A stretch of DNA of 46,050 bases from a virus. The position numbers and the translations under genes are program-made. The stretch's first letter is position 1; the number at the start of each line of letters is the position of its first letter. Shown here one piece after another: positions 100 to 6,548 of this stretch. The DNA is taken from IMG/VR virus record IMGVR_UViG_3300009537_000030, positions 1-46,050 of that record. One strand, given 5' to 3'. The notes beneath the pieces were generated by a model. It ran no database searches, was not told the origin of the DNA, and saw only the letters and a program-made list of their open reading frames with translations.

Positions 100-185
100 A
101 TTGATGATGCAACTAATCGCATTAAACACATTGCAAAATGAGTGTGAACCATGTCACCTGATGGTACTACTATTGCTACTTTCAT
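1..185 (-). CDS. Glycosyltransferase family-2-like protein, N-terminal part; the gene wraps the circular junction and continues in 45558..45951
   Basis: ATG at 185-183 with GAGGTG upstream. MKVAIVVPSGDMVHTHFAMCLMRLV... runs off the left edge. Through the 99-bp overlap it is in frame with 45558..46050, giving 192 aa in total. Confidence 0.7.
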   Translation of the reverse strand, partial: MKVAIVVPSGDMVHTHFAMCLMRLVASSMSAGIDVFVINPKSSLVQKGRWSGVRQALDEGA

Positions 186-197
186 ATTATCACCTCT

Positions 198-229
198 AAA
201 AAGAGGTGCATAGATTTACTATGCACCTT
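198..229 (-). terminator. Rho-independent terminator after the Gp49-like gene
   Basis: Minus-strand hairpin GGTGCATAG-TAAAT-CTATGCACC (227..205) followed by TTTTT (202..198), just downstream of the stop at 236. Confidence 0.6.
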
Positions 230-235
230 ATAAAA

Positions 236-577
236 TTAACCTGTTGTATCACCTTCTTCAGGTTCAAAGTCAGTATTCCCGTCCGGTCCAGTATTATATA
301 AATGCTGCTTAAGTAGATAACCTTCAAGCATCCACACCTTATCTACTGCGTTACCTTTAGCAATTTTATTACCTATTGCTTCATCGTAGTTCTCAGGACT
401 TGCACAAGCAGATTCACCTGTAACTGTAAATCCATTCATTAATGTAAGAACACATACTGTTAGTACATCAGTTAGTTTATGATAATCAACTTTATTAATA
501 ACTGACTGTACATGTTCAGGTGTAACACGTGGTGCTGTTAAACCTTTGTCTTTAATCATTTGCTCTGTATCGCTCAT
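236..577 (-). CDS. Phage Gp49/Sf6 gp66-like protein
   Basis: 113-aa ORF. The TVCVLTLMNGFTVTGESACASPENYDEAIGNKIA...LEGYLL block matches my memory of the N4 Gp49 / Sf6 gene 66 family. SD-like AGGAG upstream. Confidence 0.65.
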   Translation of the reverse strand: MSDTEQMIKDKGLTAPRVTPEHVQSVINKVDYHKLTDVLTVCVLTLMNGFTVTGESACASPENYDEAIGNKIAKGNAVDKVWMLEGYLLKQHLYNTGPDGNTDFEPEEGDTTG

Positions 578-594
578 TTTTACTTCTCCTTTGG

Positions 595-3012
595 TTAAAA
601 AAAGTTTACTGTTAAATCATTGGTTGTAATACCATCACGGTATCTTTGTAGTGCTGCTTTCAATCCTTCTTCATCATCCGTCTTACGCTCAATAGCATCA
701 GCAACTGCAAGGTCAACTGTGTCATTGCATAATATTCTGATGATTGATACAGGGTGTGTCTGACCCTGACGGTCGATACGTCCATTCATTTGTAGATATA
801 ATTCAAGGGACCAATTGATACCGAACCATACAACAATGTGACCGTTATCCTGTAGACCATCAACACCATGTCCCATTGAATTATGTGAAACAAACACATC
901 ACCGTCAGCATTCTTAATTAAAAACCTATGACGTGGGCCGCAATCAACTAAGTCGTAGACCTTGCTTTTCTTTTTGCTTTGTTCTTCAGCGTCATGCTTT
1001 TCCCGTAAGGTGAATTGAGTGCGTCCTGTACTGCTTGATCCGCTGTCATCCCACGATTCAATCTCATGCGTAACATCATTTTGCTTACACCAGTTAAACG
1101 ACACAAACCTGCTAAATGTATTTTTGAACCTTTGTAAATTAGAATTCGATTCGTTCTCTTGTTTGATTGCTGGTCGAACATTGTCACCCAGGTGCAGTTT
1201 TCTTTCGAGTAACCTTTGTTCACATCCTTCCTTTCGATAGTTAAATCGTCCGAGTAACCCTTGTGCATATCTGCATAAAATACTGTGAAGTCTTCCCACT
1301 CTTTGCATACAGATATACCGCGACCACCGTAATTCTTGTCCAATATGTTCTTTGCTCGATTCTTTATACCCTGCCATGTCTGATACATCCGAGTACCGGT
1401 CATATTGTGATACGTATCTTTTATGCAATGGTGACAATGTTGACTTTTCTTCTTGTTGTGTTTCGCTACATTCTGTCTCATTATCTCGAACTGAGTGTTG
1501 CAGTTCAGGCATTCCGCTAATACTATCGACAAGCGTTTCCCATTGGTATATTGCTTCATTCCTATTTTCTTTATTATCTTCAACATGTTTCGCTTCTACC
1601 CATTCATCATTGATTAACAGTTTATGATCAGGTGTCATAGTTATACCGAATAATTCAACTACCTCTTTATAACCTGAATATGAACAACCTTTATGTGATA
1701 CGAACTCAACACCGTCATGAACTCGATCACCTTTTTCAACGTCAATTAGTTTAGTCCATCCATTCCATTCCGTCAACACTAGGGTGTCAGGGTGTAGGCA
1801 AGCAGGGTGACCGATGAGTAACTTAATTTCTCCACGGTTCCATTGGTCAATGACTTTCTCTGTATCTTTCGAGGGTGTCTTGGTCAGGTTAACAGGTTTA
1901 TATTTCTTGAACTTCTTCATGATACGTTCAGCATCTGCTCTGAATGAGTAGCTGCACAGCACCGGTGAACCACCTGCTTCTTCAAGTACTTCTTCAAGTG
2001 CATCAAGTTTAGCATCATGCAGTGCTTCAAATTCAGGTGACTCACTACTGAGATACGGTGACCCATTACAGAACTGCAGTGTCTTATTTGATATCGATGA
2101 CTTGCTGAATACTTCAACTTCACTACCACTATCAAGCTGCGTGAACATTTGTTTTTCAATTTCTTTGTATGCCTTACGCGCTGCTGCAGGTAGGTCAACC
2201 ATCATGTTATTGACTTTACAATCTGGTAAATCTAAATACTCACGTGCATCCATCTTCACTGTGATATCACTTATCTTATGCTCGATCCATTGCTTACCTA
2301 ATTCAGTCGGTGTGTAGGTCCATCCACTGTAGTCACTCATGAAGTAACTGTCTTTATAATGTGTGATGAATTCACCGAGTCGTTCACCACCATCGACTGC
2401 TAAGAATTGACCATGTAGATCCAGGTAACCATTTGATGCAGGTGTACCAGTGAGGCCGGTCCTGTATTTGAAGTGAGGTAATATCTTACGCCAGCCGGTG
2501 ACATTAATTTTATATGTTTCTCCGCGTTTATCTTTGCGGTCCCTGTTCCCACCTTTCATACGTAGCGTGGTGCTGTTCTTCAGCTTCGATACTTCATCAT
2601 AGACAACCATTTCAAACGGTAAGTCTTTACCCTGGGATATGTAGTAGTGGTCAAGCTGCTCCGCTAACCAATTCATATTCTCATAGTTGATAAGGTAGAT
2701 ATCAGCATCAGCAAACAATGCACGTGACCGTTTCTCTTTCACACCATGTATGACACTGAATCGTAGGTGTTTAGTGTGCTCCCACTTACGTGACTCACGC
2801 GCCCACACAGCTTGTATAACACGCAATGGCCCAAAGATAAGTGTCTTCTTCACCTGACCCGCACGCATTCTATCAACGATGGTGGTCAGTGTGACTGGTG
2901 TTTTACCGAGTCCCATACCGAGCCATAACATACTGTCATCATGACTGAGTTGATGCATGACGCAGGTGCGTTGGTACTCGAAGAGTTGTTGCGGGGTGAG
3001 CAGGTCAGTCAT
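595..3012 (-). CDS. SNF2-family helicase precursor interrupted by a 307-codon intein; spliced product about 498 aa
   Basis: Walker A GMGLGKT, DExx box VYDEVS, and C-terminal helicase motifs GHPA|SMGHGVDGLQ and GRIDRQGQ. The ORF is continuous over 805 aa. ATGA overlap with the upstream deformylase gene. Confidence 0.9.
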   Translation of the reverse strand: MTDLLTPQQLFEYQRTCVMHQLSHDDSMLWLGMGLGKTPVTLTTIVDRMRAGQVKKTLIFGPLRVIQAVWARESRKWEHTKHLRFSVIHGVKEKRSRALFADADIYLINYENMNWLAEQLDHYYISQGKDLPFEMVVYDEVSKLKNSTTLRMKGGNRDRKDKRGETYKINVTGWRKILPHFKYRTGLTGTPASNGYLDLHGQFLAVDGGERLGEFITHYKDSYFMSDYSGWTYTPTELGKQWIEHKISDITVKMDAREYLDLPDCKVNNMMVDLPAAARKAYKEIEKQMFTQLDSGSEVEVFSKSSISNKTLQFCNGSPYLSSESPEFEALHDAKLDALEEVLEEAGGSPVLCSYSFRADAERIMKKFKKYKPVNLTKTPSKDTEKVIDQWNRGEIKLLIGHPACLHPDTLVLTEWNGWTKLIDVEKGDRVHDGVEFVSHKGCSYSGYKEVVELFGITMTPDHKLLINDEWVEAKHVEDNKENRNEAIYQWETLVDSISGMPELQHSVRDNETECSETQQEEKSTLSPLHKRYVSQYDRYSDVSDMAGYKESSKEHIGQELRWSRYICMQRVGRLHSILCRYAQGLLGRFNYRKEGCEQRLLERKLHLGDNVRPAIKQENESNSNLQRFKNTFSRFVSFNWCKQNDVTHEIESWDDSGSSSTGRTQFTLREKHDAEEQSKKKSKVYDLVDCGPRHRFLIKNADGDVFVSHNSMGHGVDGLQDNGHIVVWFGINWSLELYLQMNGRIDRQGQTHPVSIIRILCNDTVDLAVADAIERKTDDEEGLKAALQRYRDGITTNDLTVNFF
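880..1800 (-). mobile_element. Intein (Hint domain) inserted in helicase motif V
   Basis: Starts Cys (codon 1800-1798) in CLHPDTLVL (block A) and has TPDH (block B). Ends VYDLV..HRF..VFVSHN (Asn codon 882-880) followed by Ser. The flanks rejoin to GHPASMGHG. Confidence 0.85.
948..1586 (-). CDS. Homing-endonuclease-like / DNA-binding protein nested in the intein in the +1 frame
   Basis: 212-aa ORF with its own ATG, lying entirely between intein blocks B and F. It has CLNC...CHHC, then TRMYQTWQGIKNR..YGGRGISVCKEW..FY.DM..NCTWV, alignable by eye to ORF 6521..6973, and an HTH-like C-terminus. Confidence 0.7.
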   Translation of the reverse strand: MLKIIKKIGMKQYTNGKRLSIVLAECLNCNTQFEIMRQNVAKHNKKKSQHCHHCIKDTYHNMTGTRMYQTWQGIKNRAKNILDKNYGGRGISVCKEWEDFTVFYADMHKGYSDDLTIERKDVNKGYSKENCTWVTMFDQQSNKRTNRILIYKGSKIHLAGLCRLTGVSKMMLRMRLNRGMTADQAVQDALNSPYGKSMTLKNKAKRKARSTT

Positions 3013-3440
3013 TGAATTAATTCACCATCGAGATGCGCTATTTCATGTTGGATTAATCGTGCCTCTAAGCCTTTGAATAATTTTTCTACCACGTTACCTT
3101 CTTCATTCCAGTAAGCAACCTTTACTTTGAACCACCGTTTAATTCGTACAGGGTGTTTCATTGATATGGGTACTGAGAAACATGACTCATGACCCCATGA
3201 ATATTTTCCCTTGGTGAGAATGATTACAGGGTTGACCATAATGGTTGTCTTAGCTTGAACATTCACCAGGATGATTCTTTTCTTATGACCTATCTGTGGT
3301 GCTGCTAACCCTGCACAATTATTCAATGTTGCAGCAGTATCTTTGAGGTCGGTGATAACTTCATGTTGCTCAGTTTCACTGTGCGACTCTTCACATATTT
3401 CAGATAGTATCTTCTTATCTGTTAATATTGGTCTAATCAT
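3009..3440 (-). CDS. def: Peptide deformylase (phage-type, short C-terminus)
   Basis: Three PDF motifs are present: GLAAPQIG, ESCFSVP (variant of EGCLS) and QHEIAHLDG (HExxH). 143 aa. Confidence 0.85.
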   Translation of the reverse strand: MIRPILTDKKILSEICEESHSETEQHEVITDLKDTAATLNNCAGLAAPQIGHKKRIILVNVQAKTTIMVNPVIILTKGKYSWGHESCFSVPISMKHPVRIKRWFKVKVAYWNEEGNVVEKLFKGLEARLIQHEIAHLDGELIQ

Positions 3441-3721
3441 TTCAATAATACCTCTCTAATCCAAGCATCAACACCTTCATGACCCCATACAGTATCAACA
3501 CAGGCACCCGCTTTAAGTAGTCTAGCGTGCTCACGTTCTTGACCTGGTTCATAACTACCGTCGATGGTTTTCACTTCAACAAAGATAACTTTACCTTTAT
3601 AAATAACAATTCTATCCGGCACACCATCACGCCCAGGTGATACCCATTTACGAGTGATACCCCCTAGCTTAGTGACTTCTTCATCAAGATAAGTCTCGAC
3701 TTTGTTTTCACGGACACCCAT
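3437..3721 (-). CDS. VRR-NUC domain nuclease
   Basis: GVPDRIVIY..VIFVEVKT..G...PGQ...LLKAGA.V pattern typical of VRR-NUC. 94 aa. Confidence 0.8.
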   Translation of the reverse strand: MGVRENKVETYLDEEVTKLGGITRKWVSPGRDGVPDRIVIYKGKVIFVEVKTIDGSYEPGQEREHARLLKAGACVDTVWGHEGVDAWIREVLLK

Positions 3722-4062
3722 TAACCTTCAACCATACCCGACTGGTGAGATGTCACTTCATTACTGAGTAACTGGATACATGCATTCAATGTTTCAATGA
3801 CAATGTTCATATCAGTAGCACTATCATCCTCATCAAGTAGCTTCTCAGCATTACGCTTCATCATCATCATGCTACCCATTGCTGCGATAGGGTTACCGGC
3901 GTACATCTTTGATACAGCTAGTTCTTCAACCTGACCCATATCACTGTGTAGCGTGGTGATGCTGAACATTTCACCTTCATTGATTAATGCTTCAAGTTCA
4001 TCACTGGCTACGAACTCACGTGTGCTACCGTTACTGTATGTTACTGTTACATTTGTGTTCAC
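3721..4062 (-). CDS. Hypothetical protein
   Basis: 113-aa ORF in the gene chain, overlapping its neighbours at start and stop. Confidence 0.55.
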   Translation of the reverse strand: MNTNVTVTYSNGSTREFVASDELEALINEGEMFSITTLHSDMGQVEELAVSKMYAGNPIAAMGSMMMMKRNAEKLLDEDDSATDMNIVIETLNACIQLLSNEVTSHQSGMVEG

Positions 4063-4451: not shown

Positions 4452-6548
4452 TCACATTGAACCTTGCAACAGTGGCTTCACAAGTTTCTCAGTTTCTTTT
4501 ATGTACCATTCGAGATTGATATCATCGAACGGTTCCCTATCATGCTTATCCCTGTGCGTGGTGTGAGCATGTACATCTAATTTATGTACATATAAATCAT
4601 TACACAGCTGCACTTTCCAACCTGTATTGATACCGACGCGACGTTCTTCATACGTTGATTTGTTCTTGGTGTGAATGCGTGCATCCCATACACCGATACC
4701 CACTTCAGCCATGACTGCATTGAAGGTGTCATCAGTTAAACTATTCGCACGTTTATATTCACCTGCAATACCTTTAGGGGGCATCACTTTTTCAAGTGGT
4801 CGTCCTTCTGTGCTGATATAGTATCGAACGATGTTGCTGACCTGCTCACCTCCCCACTCAAGCGTGCTGCTTCTTGGTACTTTTGTGCGTAGGAAAAAGT
4901 CAAATACATCGGTATGATTGCTAATAAACTCACGAACATCAGCACCGTTAACGAGTGCAGCTTCAGCTGCAATAGCCACAATCCTAGCTGACCAATCTTT
5001 ATGATAAGGTAACTCACGTGTTCCAGGGTTCTCTTCAGCGGTGACATGGGCGTATGCTCCTATTCGTTTTAATTTACCGTCAGTCTTTTCAGCAATGTAA
5101 CTATTTACATCACGTATGAACATGCGGCTATACAATGCTTCTTCTAGTTCTAAATTGGTTAAGTTCTCCCACCACTTACAGACAAGGCGGGTGTGCTCAA
5201 GATATTCATGTGGACATAAGTAAGTAATACCATCGGTGTTAGCTTGCACCATGCGTAACCCTGACACCTTCAACAGTTGTTCAACTAACATGCATAACAA
5301 CAGTTGACCGTTGATGGTGATACTCATGGTGTAATAAGGATCATAAAAAGGTGAGTACTCATTATTGCTACCACCATACGCACCGTTCAATGCTAACTTG
5401 AATGCTTCATTTTCAGGTGTGCCTTTGTCATAAGTTTTACGTGTATGATACACAGCTTCATAAGCGTCACAGAATTCAATACCTAAGTGTGCAGGGAAGA
5501 GTTTATTTTTAATACCAAGGTTCGGATAAAAAGAAGCAACATCAACATCAACAAGCTGATGGGTATCAGTGGTGTGCACAACCTGAGATTCGACTGATGC
5601 GTGTAACCCACCGGTACCGAAGTGGTAGCTGAAACCATCAATGTCAGCTGTGAGGTCTTTAAACACACCTTTCGTTTCGGTGATAACCTTTGATTGTAAG
5701 TAGCCCATGATGTTCTGGAATTCAATTCTTTCAAATTTAACGTAGGGAAATATGACCTGTGATAAATCGATTGACTCACGTTTGGTTTGACGTTTGACTT
5801 TCCGATTCCCTTGATATTCATAAATCTGTATACCTCTTTTTTCCATCTCGGTAGTTAGTATGACTTCACCGATTTTAACATCACTCATGTTCATCATGTT
5901 CTTATCGAAAGCTTTAGATAAACCTTCACGCATTTTAATCTGTGCTGCAGTTCTATCGTGAAACAAATCAGTTGCATCAATGTCATGCCACATGTAGCTG
6001 ATGAGCACATCAACCTGGTCACTGGTGAGCATTGTACCAACATCAAAAGGTAAGTCTTCAATGCTGTCCATACGCATGTTGAATTCTAATACTTTCAAAC
6101 TTGTTGCTTTAGATACATTATCGAAGTGATGAATTTTATACAGGTCAAGCTGGTCAACTTTCCAGTCAGATTCCCACACCATGTGAGCAAAACGTGCTGG
6201 ACCATGTGCACCGATGATACTCATTGCTTTATTGTAGATGTCAGTGACCGTGATACCTGCGTGTTGGTTCTGATAGATGAAGTGCATGACAGGATAATCG
6301 AACCCGATATTGTTATACCCAACAGCACGACAACCTTGCTCGCGCATGATGTCAATGAACTGACACAGCATATGCGTGTCATTACGTCTGAAGCTGATTT
6401 CAAACTGCCACTTACGACGTGTTGTTTTATGAAGGAACCCCACGGTAAACGCATTAGGGAAAGTTTCCGAGTCCATCACCACATCACCCTGTGTGATGCC
6501 GAATAAAAAATCTGGATTAATCATTTGTATTTTTTCTCTGACCAACAA
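4452..6548 (-). CDS. DNA polymerase with N-terminal 3'-5' exonuclease, family-B-like motifs; likely start at 6524
   Basis: Exo motifs MDSETF, GYNNIGFDYP and YMWHDIDATDLF. Palm motifs DVASFYPN (DxxSLYPS-like), KLALNGAYGG (KxxxNSxYG-like) and QANTDGI (DTD-like). The ATG at 6524 overlaps the stop of 6521..6973 (ATGA). Confidence 0.85.
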   Translation of the reverse strand: MLVREKIQMINPDFLFGITQGDVVMDSETFPNAFTVGFLHKTTRRKWQFEISFRRNDTHMLCQFIDIMREQGCRAVGYNNIGFDYPVMHFIYQNQHAGITVTDIYNKAMSIIGAHGPARFAHMVWESDWKVDQLDLYKIHHFDNVSKATSLKVLEFNMRMDSIEDLPFDVGTMLTSDQVDVLISYMWHDIDATDLFHDRTAAQIKMREGLSKAFDKNMMNMSDVKIGEVILTTEMEKRGIQIYEYQGNRKVKRQTKRESIDLSQVIFPYVKFERIEFQNIMGYLQSKVITETKGVFKDLTADIDGFSYHFGTGGLHASVESQVVHTTDTHQLVDVDVASFYPNLGIKNKLFPAHLGIEFCDAYEAVYHTRKTYDKGTPENEAFKLALNGAYGGSNNEYSPFYDPYYTMSITINGQLLLCMLVEQLLKVSGLRMVQANTDGITYLCPHEYLEHTRLVCKWWENLTNLELEEALYSRMFIRDVNSYIAEKTDGKLKRIGAYAHVTAEENPGTRELPYHKDWSARIVAIAAEAALVNGADVREFISNHTDVFDFFLRTKVPRSSTLEWGGEQVSNIVRYYISTEGRPLEKVMPPKGIAGEYKRANSLTDDTFNAVMAEVGIGVWDARIHTKNKSTYEERRVGINTGWKVQLCNDLYVHKLDVHAHTTHRDKHDREPFDDINLEWYIKETEKLVKPLLQGSM

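Follow-up and report, generated by a model that had tools for sequence, protein, structure and literature searches.

Introduction

Inteins whose homing endonuclease is encoded out of frame with the splicing domain have been described in two preprints. Gosselin, Arsenault and Gogarten (bioRxiv 10.1101/2025.01.02.630785) reported actinophage inteins with an endonuclease VII-like homing endonuclease (IPR004211) 'in frame 3', alongside antisense LAGLIDADG and VSR-like homing endonucleases. Phillips, DeSimone and Gogarten (bioRxiv 10.64898/2026.09.14.751524) described a LAGLIDADG homing endonuclease in the '+2 ORF' (open reading frame) of a cyanobacterial dnaX intein, with frame-dependent omega; this intein was first noted by Gorbalenya in 1998, as cited in their work. 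Here, we analyse a related arrangement in the virus record IMGVR_UViG_3300009537_000030, of which positions 1 to 46,050 (46,050 nucleotides, nt; hereafter the window) were examined. An SNF2-family helicase gene in the window is interrupted by a 307-codon insert that is very probably a mobile class-1 intein with a homing endonuclease gene (HEG) overprinted in its +1 frame. A first-pass annotation of the window knew of no intein with an out-of-frame HEG, a statement that these 2025-2026 preprints render out of date; the element studied here is a large and unannotated variant, with a HEG of another nuclease family.

The actinophage inteins have much in common with this element. In both cases a homing endonuclease ORF lies on the same strand between the splicing blocks but in another frame, the intein frame stays open, a good structure is predicted for the endonuclease frame only, and the proposed origin is that a free-standing homing endonuclease invaded an intein. 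They differ in endonuclease family (endonuclease VII-like, as against phrog_3377 with its 'YGGRGI...NCxW' core and no Pfam match to Endonuclease_7 or HNH), in frame (3 as against +1) and in host genes: those of the preprint encode terminase, capsid, polymerase and thymidylate synthase in actinophages, those found here SNF2 helicases and DNA polymerases in marine and proteobacterial phages. Furthermore, the preprint calls the arrangement rare, whereas the family in the window has at least 117 relatives in IMG/VR. The cyanobacterial dnaX intein likewise divides splicing and homing between separate overlapping frames, with a disordered linker in the intein frame, a constrained endonuclease frame and a proposed secondary invasion of a mini-intein. 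It combines LAGLIDADG, the '+2 ORF' and a cellular gene, while the window's element combines another nuclease family, the +1 frame, phage genes and several insertion sites.

Three further systems are relevant. In fractured genes (Dassa et al. 2009, PMC2677866) the host gene is divided into two ORFs joined by trans-splicing, and split inteins flank a free-standing HEG of the VSR/EDxHD-like type. The ShiLan insertion, which occurs in DNA methylases of phages (Arsenault et al. 2025, PMC11855218), resembles that of the window: it leaves the host frame open and contains an out-of-frame nuclease ORF whose stop is at the very end of the insertion. ShiLan has no detectable splicing domain, whereas the window's HEG is flanked by a Hint domain with all class-1 catalytic residues. 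Finally, the intein of the APSE P45 DNA polymerase (van der Wilk et al.) has a Hint domain homologous to that of the window (26% identical over all 307 residues) and, as found in this analysis, a +1 nested ORF with a YGGRGI..NCHW core. It differs in its host gene, a DNA polymerase, and its site (.../C...VHN/CEN; slashes mark junctions throughout), and its nested ORF is unannotated in EU794055. The literature searched contained no paper on this HEG family or on the APSE nested ORF, an absence that is no proof.

Results

The helicase insert has the anatomy of an intein

The helicase precursor ORF (Table 1) matches the Pfam models SNF2-rel_dom (E 1.2e-14) and Helicase_C (E 1.6e-6). An intein-less allele exists in Vibrio phage 1.185.O (MG592551), Vibrio phages being the nearest GenBank relatives of the window. 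The helicase of this phage is exactly 498 amino acids (aa) long, and 423 of these 498 residues (85%) are identical in a global alignment that contains a single exact gap of 307 aa, between GHPA and SMGHG. The corresponding uninterrupted DNA site reads GGTCATCCCGCT/TCAATGGGTCATGGT. The first-pass annotation had proposed that 307 codons split the 805-aa ORF at this point and that their excision would leave a helicase of about 498 aa, and had called for a search for intein-less alleles among related phage helicases; coordinates, alignment and the 1.185.O allele are all in accord with this.

The insert begins with CLHPDTLVL, which supplies Cys1, and carries the block B motif TPDH at intein residues 56-59. 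Its C-terminal part consists of block F, VYDLVDCGPRHRF (VYDLV..HRF), followed by VFVSHN, so placed that the terminal His-Asn precedes the extein Ser. T56, H59 and N307 are invariant across 16 intein homologues, and the C-terminal junctions of relatives are HN/S or HN/C. AlphaFold2 (AF2) models of the frame-0 insert, frame 0 being the helicase frame, gave values of 92-95 for pLDDT (the predicted score of the local distance difference test) at residues 1-85 and 278-307. When these ends were compared with the PDB using Foldseek, 41 of the 44 top matches were inteins, bacterial intein-like (BIL) domains or Vint domains, among them the DnaX mini-intein, DnaB, gp41-1 and RecA; the top-ranked intein matches (7cfv, 6bs8, 6qaz, 1mi8 and 2in9) had a probability of 1.0. 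Hedgehog autoprocessing domains and a trapped DnaE intein precursor made up the remaining three. The residues from which a canonical intein had been proposed at first pass are present, in ends that are modelled as a Hint fold. By sequence and fold the insert reads as a class-1 intein, which would be removed from the precursor by protein splicing.

Table 1. Coordinates of the helicase locus, its nested gene and neighbouring features within the window
Feature	Position	Strand	Basis
SNF2-family helicase precursor ORF (extein and intein), 805 aa	595..3012	-	ORF list and Pfam
N-extein, 404 aa, C-terminal end ...LLIGHPA	1801..3012	-	Alignment to intein-less Vibrio phage 1.185.O helicase, gap opening after GHPA
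Putative class-1 intein, 307 codons, precursor residues 405-711	880..1800	-	Coordinates, AF2, Foldseek, homologues
N-terminal Hint splicing region, intein residues 1-71, frame-0 coding only	1587..1800	-	Frame-0 diversity phase; pLDDT ~95
Shine-Dalgarno-like GGGTAGAAG from intein codons W-V-E	1593..1601	-	6 nt upstream of HEG ATG
Nested homing-endonuclease-like gene (HEG), +1 frame, 212 aa, whole ORF dual-coded with intein linker	948..1586	-	PHROG, AF2, homologues
Intein 'linker' (frame-0 reading of HEG DNA), about residues 73-280	961..1583	-	Stop counts, identity, pLDDT
C-terminal Hint splicing region (blocks F and G), intein residues 281-307	880..960	-	Sequence; frame-0 diversity phase
C-extein, 94 aa and stop, first residues SMGHGVDGLQ (helicase motif V region)	595..879	-	Alignment to intein-less allele
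Free-standing HEG paralogue, 150 aa	6521..6973	-	BLASTP 37% identity to nested HEG, E 9e-20; phrog_3377 E 4.6e-38
Peptide deformylase, phage-encoded	3009..3440	-	Pfam Pep_deformylase E 9.4e-32
698-aa ORF, listed TTG start	4452..6548	-	

The helicase frame is kept free of stops across the nested ORF

Over the 639 nt of the nested ORF, frame 0 contains no stop codon and the HEG frame only its own terminal stop, against 27 stops in the third frame. To this count we compared a resampling in which the HEG protein was held fixed and its synonymous codons were redrawn with the codon usage of the window: over 20,000 trials, 21.3 frame-0 stops were expected and no trial gave fewer than 10. The same avoidance is visible at the level of single codons. 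A HEG codon that ends in T creates a frame-0 stop whenever the next codon starts with AA, AG or GA. The HEG has 68 codons at such risky sites, and not one of them ends in T, compared with 307 of 646 (47%) in the other minus-strand ORFs of the window; elsewhere in the nested ORF the proportion is 46 of 144. A survey of nested ORFs of at least 180 aa gave 75 ORFs from 73 IMG/VR loci, with 0 stops in frame 0, 1317 in the third frame, and NNT codons at 0 of 4618 risky sites against 24.8% of the others. Homologues with frame-0 stops, which the first-pass annotation had named as a refutation, are absent from this set.

We conclude that frame 0 is held stop-free by selection, beyond what chance would allow. 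The earlier argument that the double openness exceeds chance, for which a probability of about 4e-5 had been given, is strengthened by these data; the figure is conservative, because the resampling minimum was 10 stops and T-ending codons stand at 0/68 against 307/646.

An unlucky assembly could in principle yield a similar picture, if two compensating sequencing or assembly indels masked an ordinary intein with an in-frame endonuclease, and the metagenomic relatives L046, L054 and L074 do contain single frameshifts or ambiguous bases. An unread frame 0 would, on the other hand, hold about 21 stops where none is seen, together with a codon avoidance of 0/68, and the identical +1 layout without frame-0 stops recurs in the 75 nested ORFs of 73 independently assembled loci as well as in the GenBank phages APSE-5 and Caulobacter GB2A. 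We regard such an artefact as extremely improbable and exclude a paired indel because an unread frame would not have been purged of stops.

A fractured gene with a split intein was also considered and rejected: frame 0 runs continuously through the whole 805-aa ORF, with no stops around the HEG. With frame 0 continuous and stop-free, splicing in the window would proceed in cis, unlike that of fractured genes.

Amino-acid constraint switches frames within the overlap

To compare the frames, pairwise nucleotide differences and mean amino-acid identities were calculated for 39 unique close homologues. Nucleotide difference at HEG codon positions 1/2/3 was 0.39/0.34/0.59, and mean amino-acid identity reached 0.494 for the HEG frame, against 0.289 for frame 0 and 0.287 for the third frame, which is non-coding. 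When diversity was broken down by codon position 1/2/3 of frame 0, it was 0.46/0.35/0.63 in the N-extein, 0.28/0.21/0.57 in the N-terminal Hint region, 0.59/0.39/0.34 in the HEG overlap, 0.26/0.10/0.61 in the C-terminal Hint region and 0.38/0.27/0.62 in the C-extein. This shift in the pattern by codon position shows the coding phase switching to the HEG frame exactly in the overlap. Stop avoidance and the difference in identity (0.494 against 0.289) thus both uphold the view, already taken at first pass, that selection keeps frame 0 open while the +1 frame encodes a protein.

Consistent with this, AF2 modelled residues 89-274 of the frame-0 linker with pLDDT values of 30-55, and the linker is predicted to be disordered. 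The linker is a passenger, constrained solely to remain open, and the substitution patterns show that purifying selection in the overlap acts on the amino acids of the HEG frame; in the Hint blocks and exteins, it acts in the frame-0 phase.

These data bear on whether the insert is spliced at all. It might persist unspliced as a tolerated surface loop of the helicase, since an open frame 0 alone is no proof of splicing and the ShiLan HNH insertion (PMC11855218) provides a precedent for an open, out-of-frame insertion without splicing domains. In contrast to ShiLan, however, the insert combines a Hint fold with the residues Cys1, TxxH and His-Asn/Ser+1; its Hint blocks are under strong frame-0 purifying selection, and its 307 residues sit directly ahead of helicase motif V. 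A retained loop is accordingly a very doubtful explanation, and we continue to read the insert as a splicing intein.

The nested ORF encodes a member of a large phage protein family

The ATG of the nested HEG falls in intein codons 72/73, 13 codons past block B, and its stop codon (948..950) lies within the VYDL codons of block F. The nested gene described at first pass, a 212-aa ORF with its own ATG that fills the endonuclease slot in the +1 frame, was found exactly as proposed. Two PHROG families labelled 'HNH endonuclease' match it strongly, phrog_3377 with E 2.7e-42 and phrog_374 with E 1.2e-38; four PHROGs besides phrog_3377 match at E below 1e-10, and 449 homologues were recovered at E<=1e-5. 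All 10 invariant and all 14 near-invariant family residues are retained, at full family length.

The AF2 model of the nested protein has a mean pLDDT of 90.1 and comprises an N-terminal beta domain with the CxxC..CxxC motif, a core with YGGRGI...NCxW, and a C-terminal three-helix module containing a helix-turn-helix, in agreement with the CxxC..CxxC ribbon and helix-turn-helix-like tail noted earlier. The paralogue elsewhere in the window, in which the same module had been recognised, is the related gene of Table 1. In BFVD the fold matches (E down to 7e-16) are to proteins of phages that bear the labels HNH endonuclease, helix-turn-helix homing endonuclease, PVL ORF-50-like or AP2/ERF, and certain relatives contain NUMOD1 or I-HmuI-like DNA-binding modules. 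A strand-strand-helix unit is modelled at residues 115-141, with R119, N130, Q139 and N142, not His, as the conserved residues. No Endonuclease_7 or LAGLIDADG match was obtained for 66 members of the family. From its PHROG and UniProt labels and the behaviour of its gene, we infer that the nested protein is an HNH or homing endonuclease.

A start signal is embedded in the Hint codons

Ahead of the HEG start, the family has the consensus tGGgtGGAGGc at a spacing of 6 nt, which is formed by the codons of the conserved Hint residues W-V-E-A. In 40 distinct upstream sequences, counts by position place G at -15/-14 and GAGG at -10..-7, and the corresponding start codons are ATG in 37 cases, GTG in two and TTG in one. 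The conserved ATG and upstream GGAGG-like site point to independent initiation of the HEG.

With both frames open on one strand, a fusion is formally possible, and programmed frameshifting, +1 and then -1, might instead produce an in-frame Hint-HEG-Hint bifunctional intein. The conserved ATG (37/40) and the GGAGG-like site favour independent initiation over such a route. In addition, the HEG has its own stop in block F at every locus, so the second shift would have to occur just before it, and complete avoidance of frame-0 stops would be needless if frame 0 were not read through. Frameshifting is for these reasons very unlikely, and separate initiation of the HEG is the reading we retain.

The composite element recurs at several insertion sites and decays by deletion

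The frame-0 insert has 16 metagenomic protein homologues, of which the full-length ones are 35-51% identical across all 307 residues. Shorter alleles include partly deleted forms (P0007, P0012, P0013) and mini-inteins (P0009, P0010, P0014). In the latter, both ends of the nested ORF survive as frame-0 remnants, which identifies these mini-inteins as deletion derivatives. Full, partly deleted and mini-intein forms all occur at the SNF2 site used in the window.

A scan of IMG/VR returned 117 relatives, of which 80 loci were retained. At every locus the HEG homologue lies in intein frame +1 and its ORF terminates within block F, at a stop of its own; no in-frame version was found among more than 80 loci. 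One apparent exception to the +1 rule, L074, has 8 frame-0 stops, and its contig contains an ambiguous base and a frameshift. Two insertion sites lie in SNF2 helicases, namely HPA/C...HN/S(M/A)GHG, the site in the window, and LQF/C...HN/CNGSPY, which holds the second intein of the same gene in L001. Two others lie in DNA polymerases, in the registers YGGK..EN/C...VHN/CVQ and YGGKL/C...VHN/CEN, and there are several more beyond these. In L001 (ENA contig ERZ23493706 scaffold_405; 103..1866 and 1863..3290) one helicase gene carries two inteins, at LQF/C..HN/CNGSPY and HPA/C..HN/SMGHG, each with its own +1 nested HEG (920..1582 and 2269..2940). Another locus, L060, has two copies of the composite in a single 1557-aa ORF.

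The arrangement is also present in phages with named hosts. The intein of the P45 DNA polymerase gene of APSE-5 (L085 1165..2082, EU794055) contains a +1 ORF with YGGRGITVCKRW...NCHW and no obvious ATG at its 5' end; frame 0 has no stops there, and the third (+2) frame 25. In Caulobacter phage GB2A (L086 2703..3344, OR260089), a 213-aa +1 ORF with an ATG start lies inside the intein of a 983-aa polymerase. GenBank annotates only the polymerase in both phages and leaves the nested ORF unannotated. Caulobacter phages RW, RLK and KcrB gave a tblastn match like that of GB2A. A scan of species-representative genomes found 5 loci, all in metagenome-assembled genomes, and the distribution suggests that the element is phage-borne.

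Discussion

We are now able to propose a mechanism for this composite element. The helicase mRNA, read in frame 0, would yield an 805-aa precursor in which an unstructured linker of about 200 residues, the frame-0 reading of the HEG, connects two Hint halves (residues 1 to about 85 and about 278 to 307). The halves would fold together and splice in cis, rejoining ...GHPA-SMGHG... in a 498-aa SNF2 helicase. Ribosomes initiating separately at the ATG at position 1586, behind the Shine-Dalgarno-like site in codons W-V-E-A, would produce a 212-aa DNA-binding nuclease of about 24 kDa. This nuclease may then cut intein-less helicase alleles of co-infecting phages, and repair would copy in the intein together with its HEG. 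Selection acts on amino acids in the HEG frame and on stop codons alone in frame 0, where a stop would kill the helicase.

As to origin, a free-standing HEG of the phrog_3377 family probably invaded a mini-intein. We favour this order of events because the HEG has its own start signal, free-standing relatives including the paralogue are abundant, and there is no in-frame version. The composite would then have spread as a unit among the SNF2 helicase and DNA polymerase genes of many phages, decaying through in-frame deletions to mini-inteins.

Several results weigh against this interpretation. Firstly, curated intein hidden Markov models (HMMs) match the intein only below threshold (Pfam Vint reaches 14.4 bits, E 0.033, where the cut-off is 27; TIGR01445 reaches 18.4 bits where it is 24.5). 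It is for this reason that we assign the intein, on fold and motifs, to what appears to be a divergent Hint lineage. Secondly, the window's HEG has no Pfam match at E<0.1, including to HNH and Endonuclease_7, and NCBIfam HNH models do not match it; a PDB sequence search found nothing, and Foldseek against the PDB gave a best E of 0.25 with no nuclease among the matches. Since no Pfam HNH model or solved nuclease structure matches, the nuclease chemistry of the nested protein is proposed from its relatives. The homing-endonuclease-like character claimed in the first-pass annotation therefore holds as far as the phage family annotation (phrog_3377) goes and finds no counterpart in Pfam HNH models or solved nuclease structures; similarly, the HMM comparison it recommended gave a strong phrog_3377 match for the +1 ORF and sub-threshold intein matches for frame 0. 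Thirdly, the window's Shine-Dalgarno-like GGGTAGAAG is weaker than the family consensus GGAGG, and a promoter and terminator scan of 500..3300 gave no excess over shuffled sequence and no promoter-like excess inside the helicase gene. Finally, individual copies can be dead, as relatives show: L046 and L054 are broken by single frameshifts, and in L084 (175..921, P0067) a deletion that removed VYDLVDCGPRH has fused the HEG frame to the C-terminal intein block, after which frame 0 meets a stop.

The last two points lend some support to a different account, in which the intein splices and the nested gene is here a relic, untranslated or inactive and still open for lack of time, at an early stage of decay in the homing cycle. 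A weak start signal, partly deleted and mini-intein alleles at the same site, and broken variants such as L084 would all fit such a relic. Against it, the nested ORF is intact at full family length, every one of its 10 invariant and 14 near-invariant residues is retained, and family-wide substitution patterns indicate ongoing purifying selection on the HEG frame. We consider this account unlikely and prefer a functional composite of intein and overprinted HEG.

In relation to the two published cases, we lean towards the view that inteins with a homing endonuclease overprinted on the same strand have arisen in a third lineage, represented by this family, which would be independent of the others and by far the largest. 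It has the look of an old composite that has kept its +1 overlap while diverging to about 25% identity in the intein frame and about 30% in the HEG. It may have moved between insertion sites, at least five of them, in the SNF2 helicases and DNA polymerases of phages, may have recruited its ribosome-binding site from Hint-domain codons, and may encode a nuclease of an uncharacterised family without the canonical HNH histidines. Phages with named hosts, APSE (Hamiltonella) and Caulobacter GB2A, RW, RLK and KcrB, would carry it without annotation.

If this is true, mobile inteins could be built in a stable manner by overprinting, which would not be a rare transient state. Two proteins would be drawn from 639 nt of one strand, whose frames are under measurably different selection, at the amino-acid level in one and against stops alone in the other. 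The case supports a model of intein evolution in which the splicing domain comes first and the endonuclease invades later, and it links mini-inteins, full inteins and fractured genes. In APSE-5 and Caulobacter GB2A, the nested gene has escaped both gene callers and the GenBank records. The occurrence of the family in phages with named hosts makes splicing over a disordered linker of 200 residues, use of the internal start and the nuclease target testable, and inteins tolerant of long linkers and new site-specific nucleases are possible tools.

Related observations

In P0073 (JGI 3300047160, gene 2894-3838 of an 11.3-kb contig), the HEG frame runs into the C-terminal intein block and the C-extein, and an N-terminal helicase gene was not found upstream on the contig. 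P0073 and the L084 variant, in which the HEG frame likewise continues into the C-extein, may represent dead alleles, errors of assembly, or stages on the way to split or in-frame forms. P0016, a 284-aa protein from a Logan contig of 5744 nt, consists of a C-terminal intein (IntC) block (VYDLVDCGPNQRF..VHN/C), about 100 aa of extein and then an N-terminal intein (IntN) block (C/IAEGTLVVT..); either two split inteins have fractured its gene, of which this would be the middle piece, or the protein is a fragment from a gene that contains two inteins.

Matches to the window intein also came from Salmonella, Proteus and Pseudomonas phages of about 43 kb. Among Salmonella phages, over 100 records list an 'intein-containing DNA polymerase precursor'; its N-terminal Hint block shares 37-38% identity with the window intein, over residues 1-84 only. 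The middle region of these precursors differs, and they may have another type of endonuclease, or another arrangement.

The free-standing paralogue in the window lies against the 698-aa ORF (Table 1), with a slight overlap at the TTG start listed for that ORF; a position abutting a neighbouring gene is typical of free-standing HEGs. No Pfam match at E<=0.001 was obtained for this ORF, which we read as a DNA polymerase from its position. The peptide deformylase gene lies directly upstream of the helicase gene, and at the corresponding position Vibrio phage 1.185.O has only a 60-aa hypothetical protein. In the same phage, four non-coding RNAs annotated as 'CRISPR spacer' (L083 4366..4583, MG592551) lie near the helicase inside the hypothetical gene NVP1185O_27, and look like a repeat array within a coding region.

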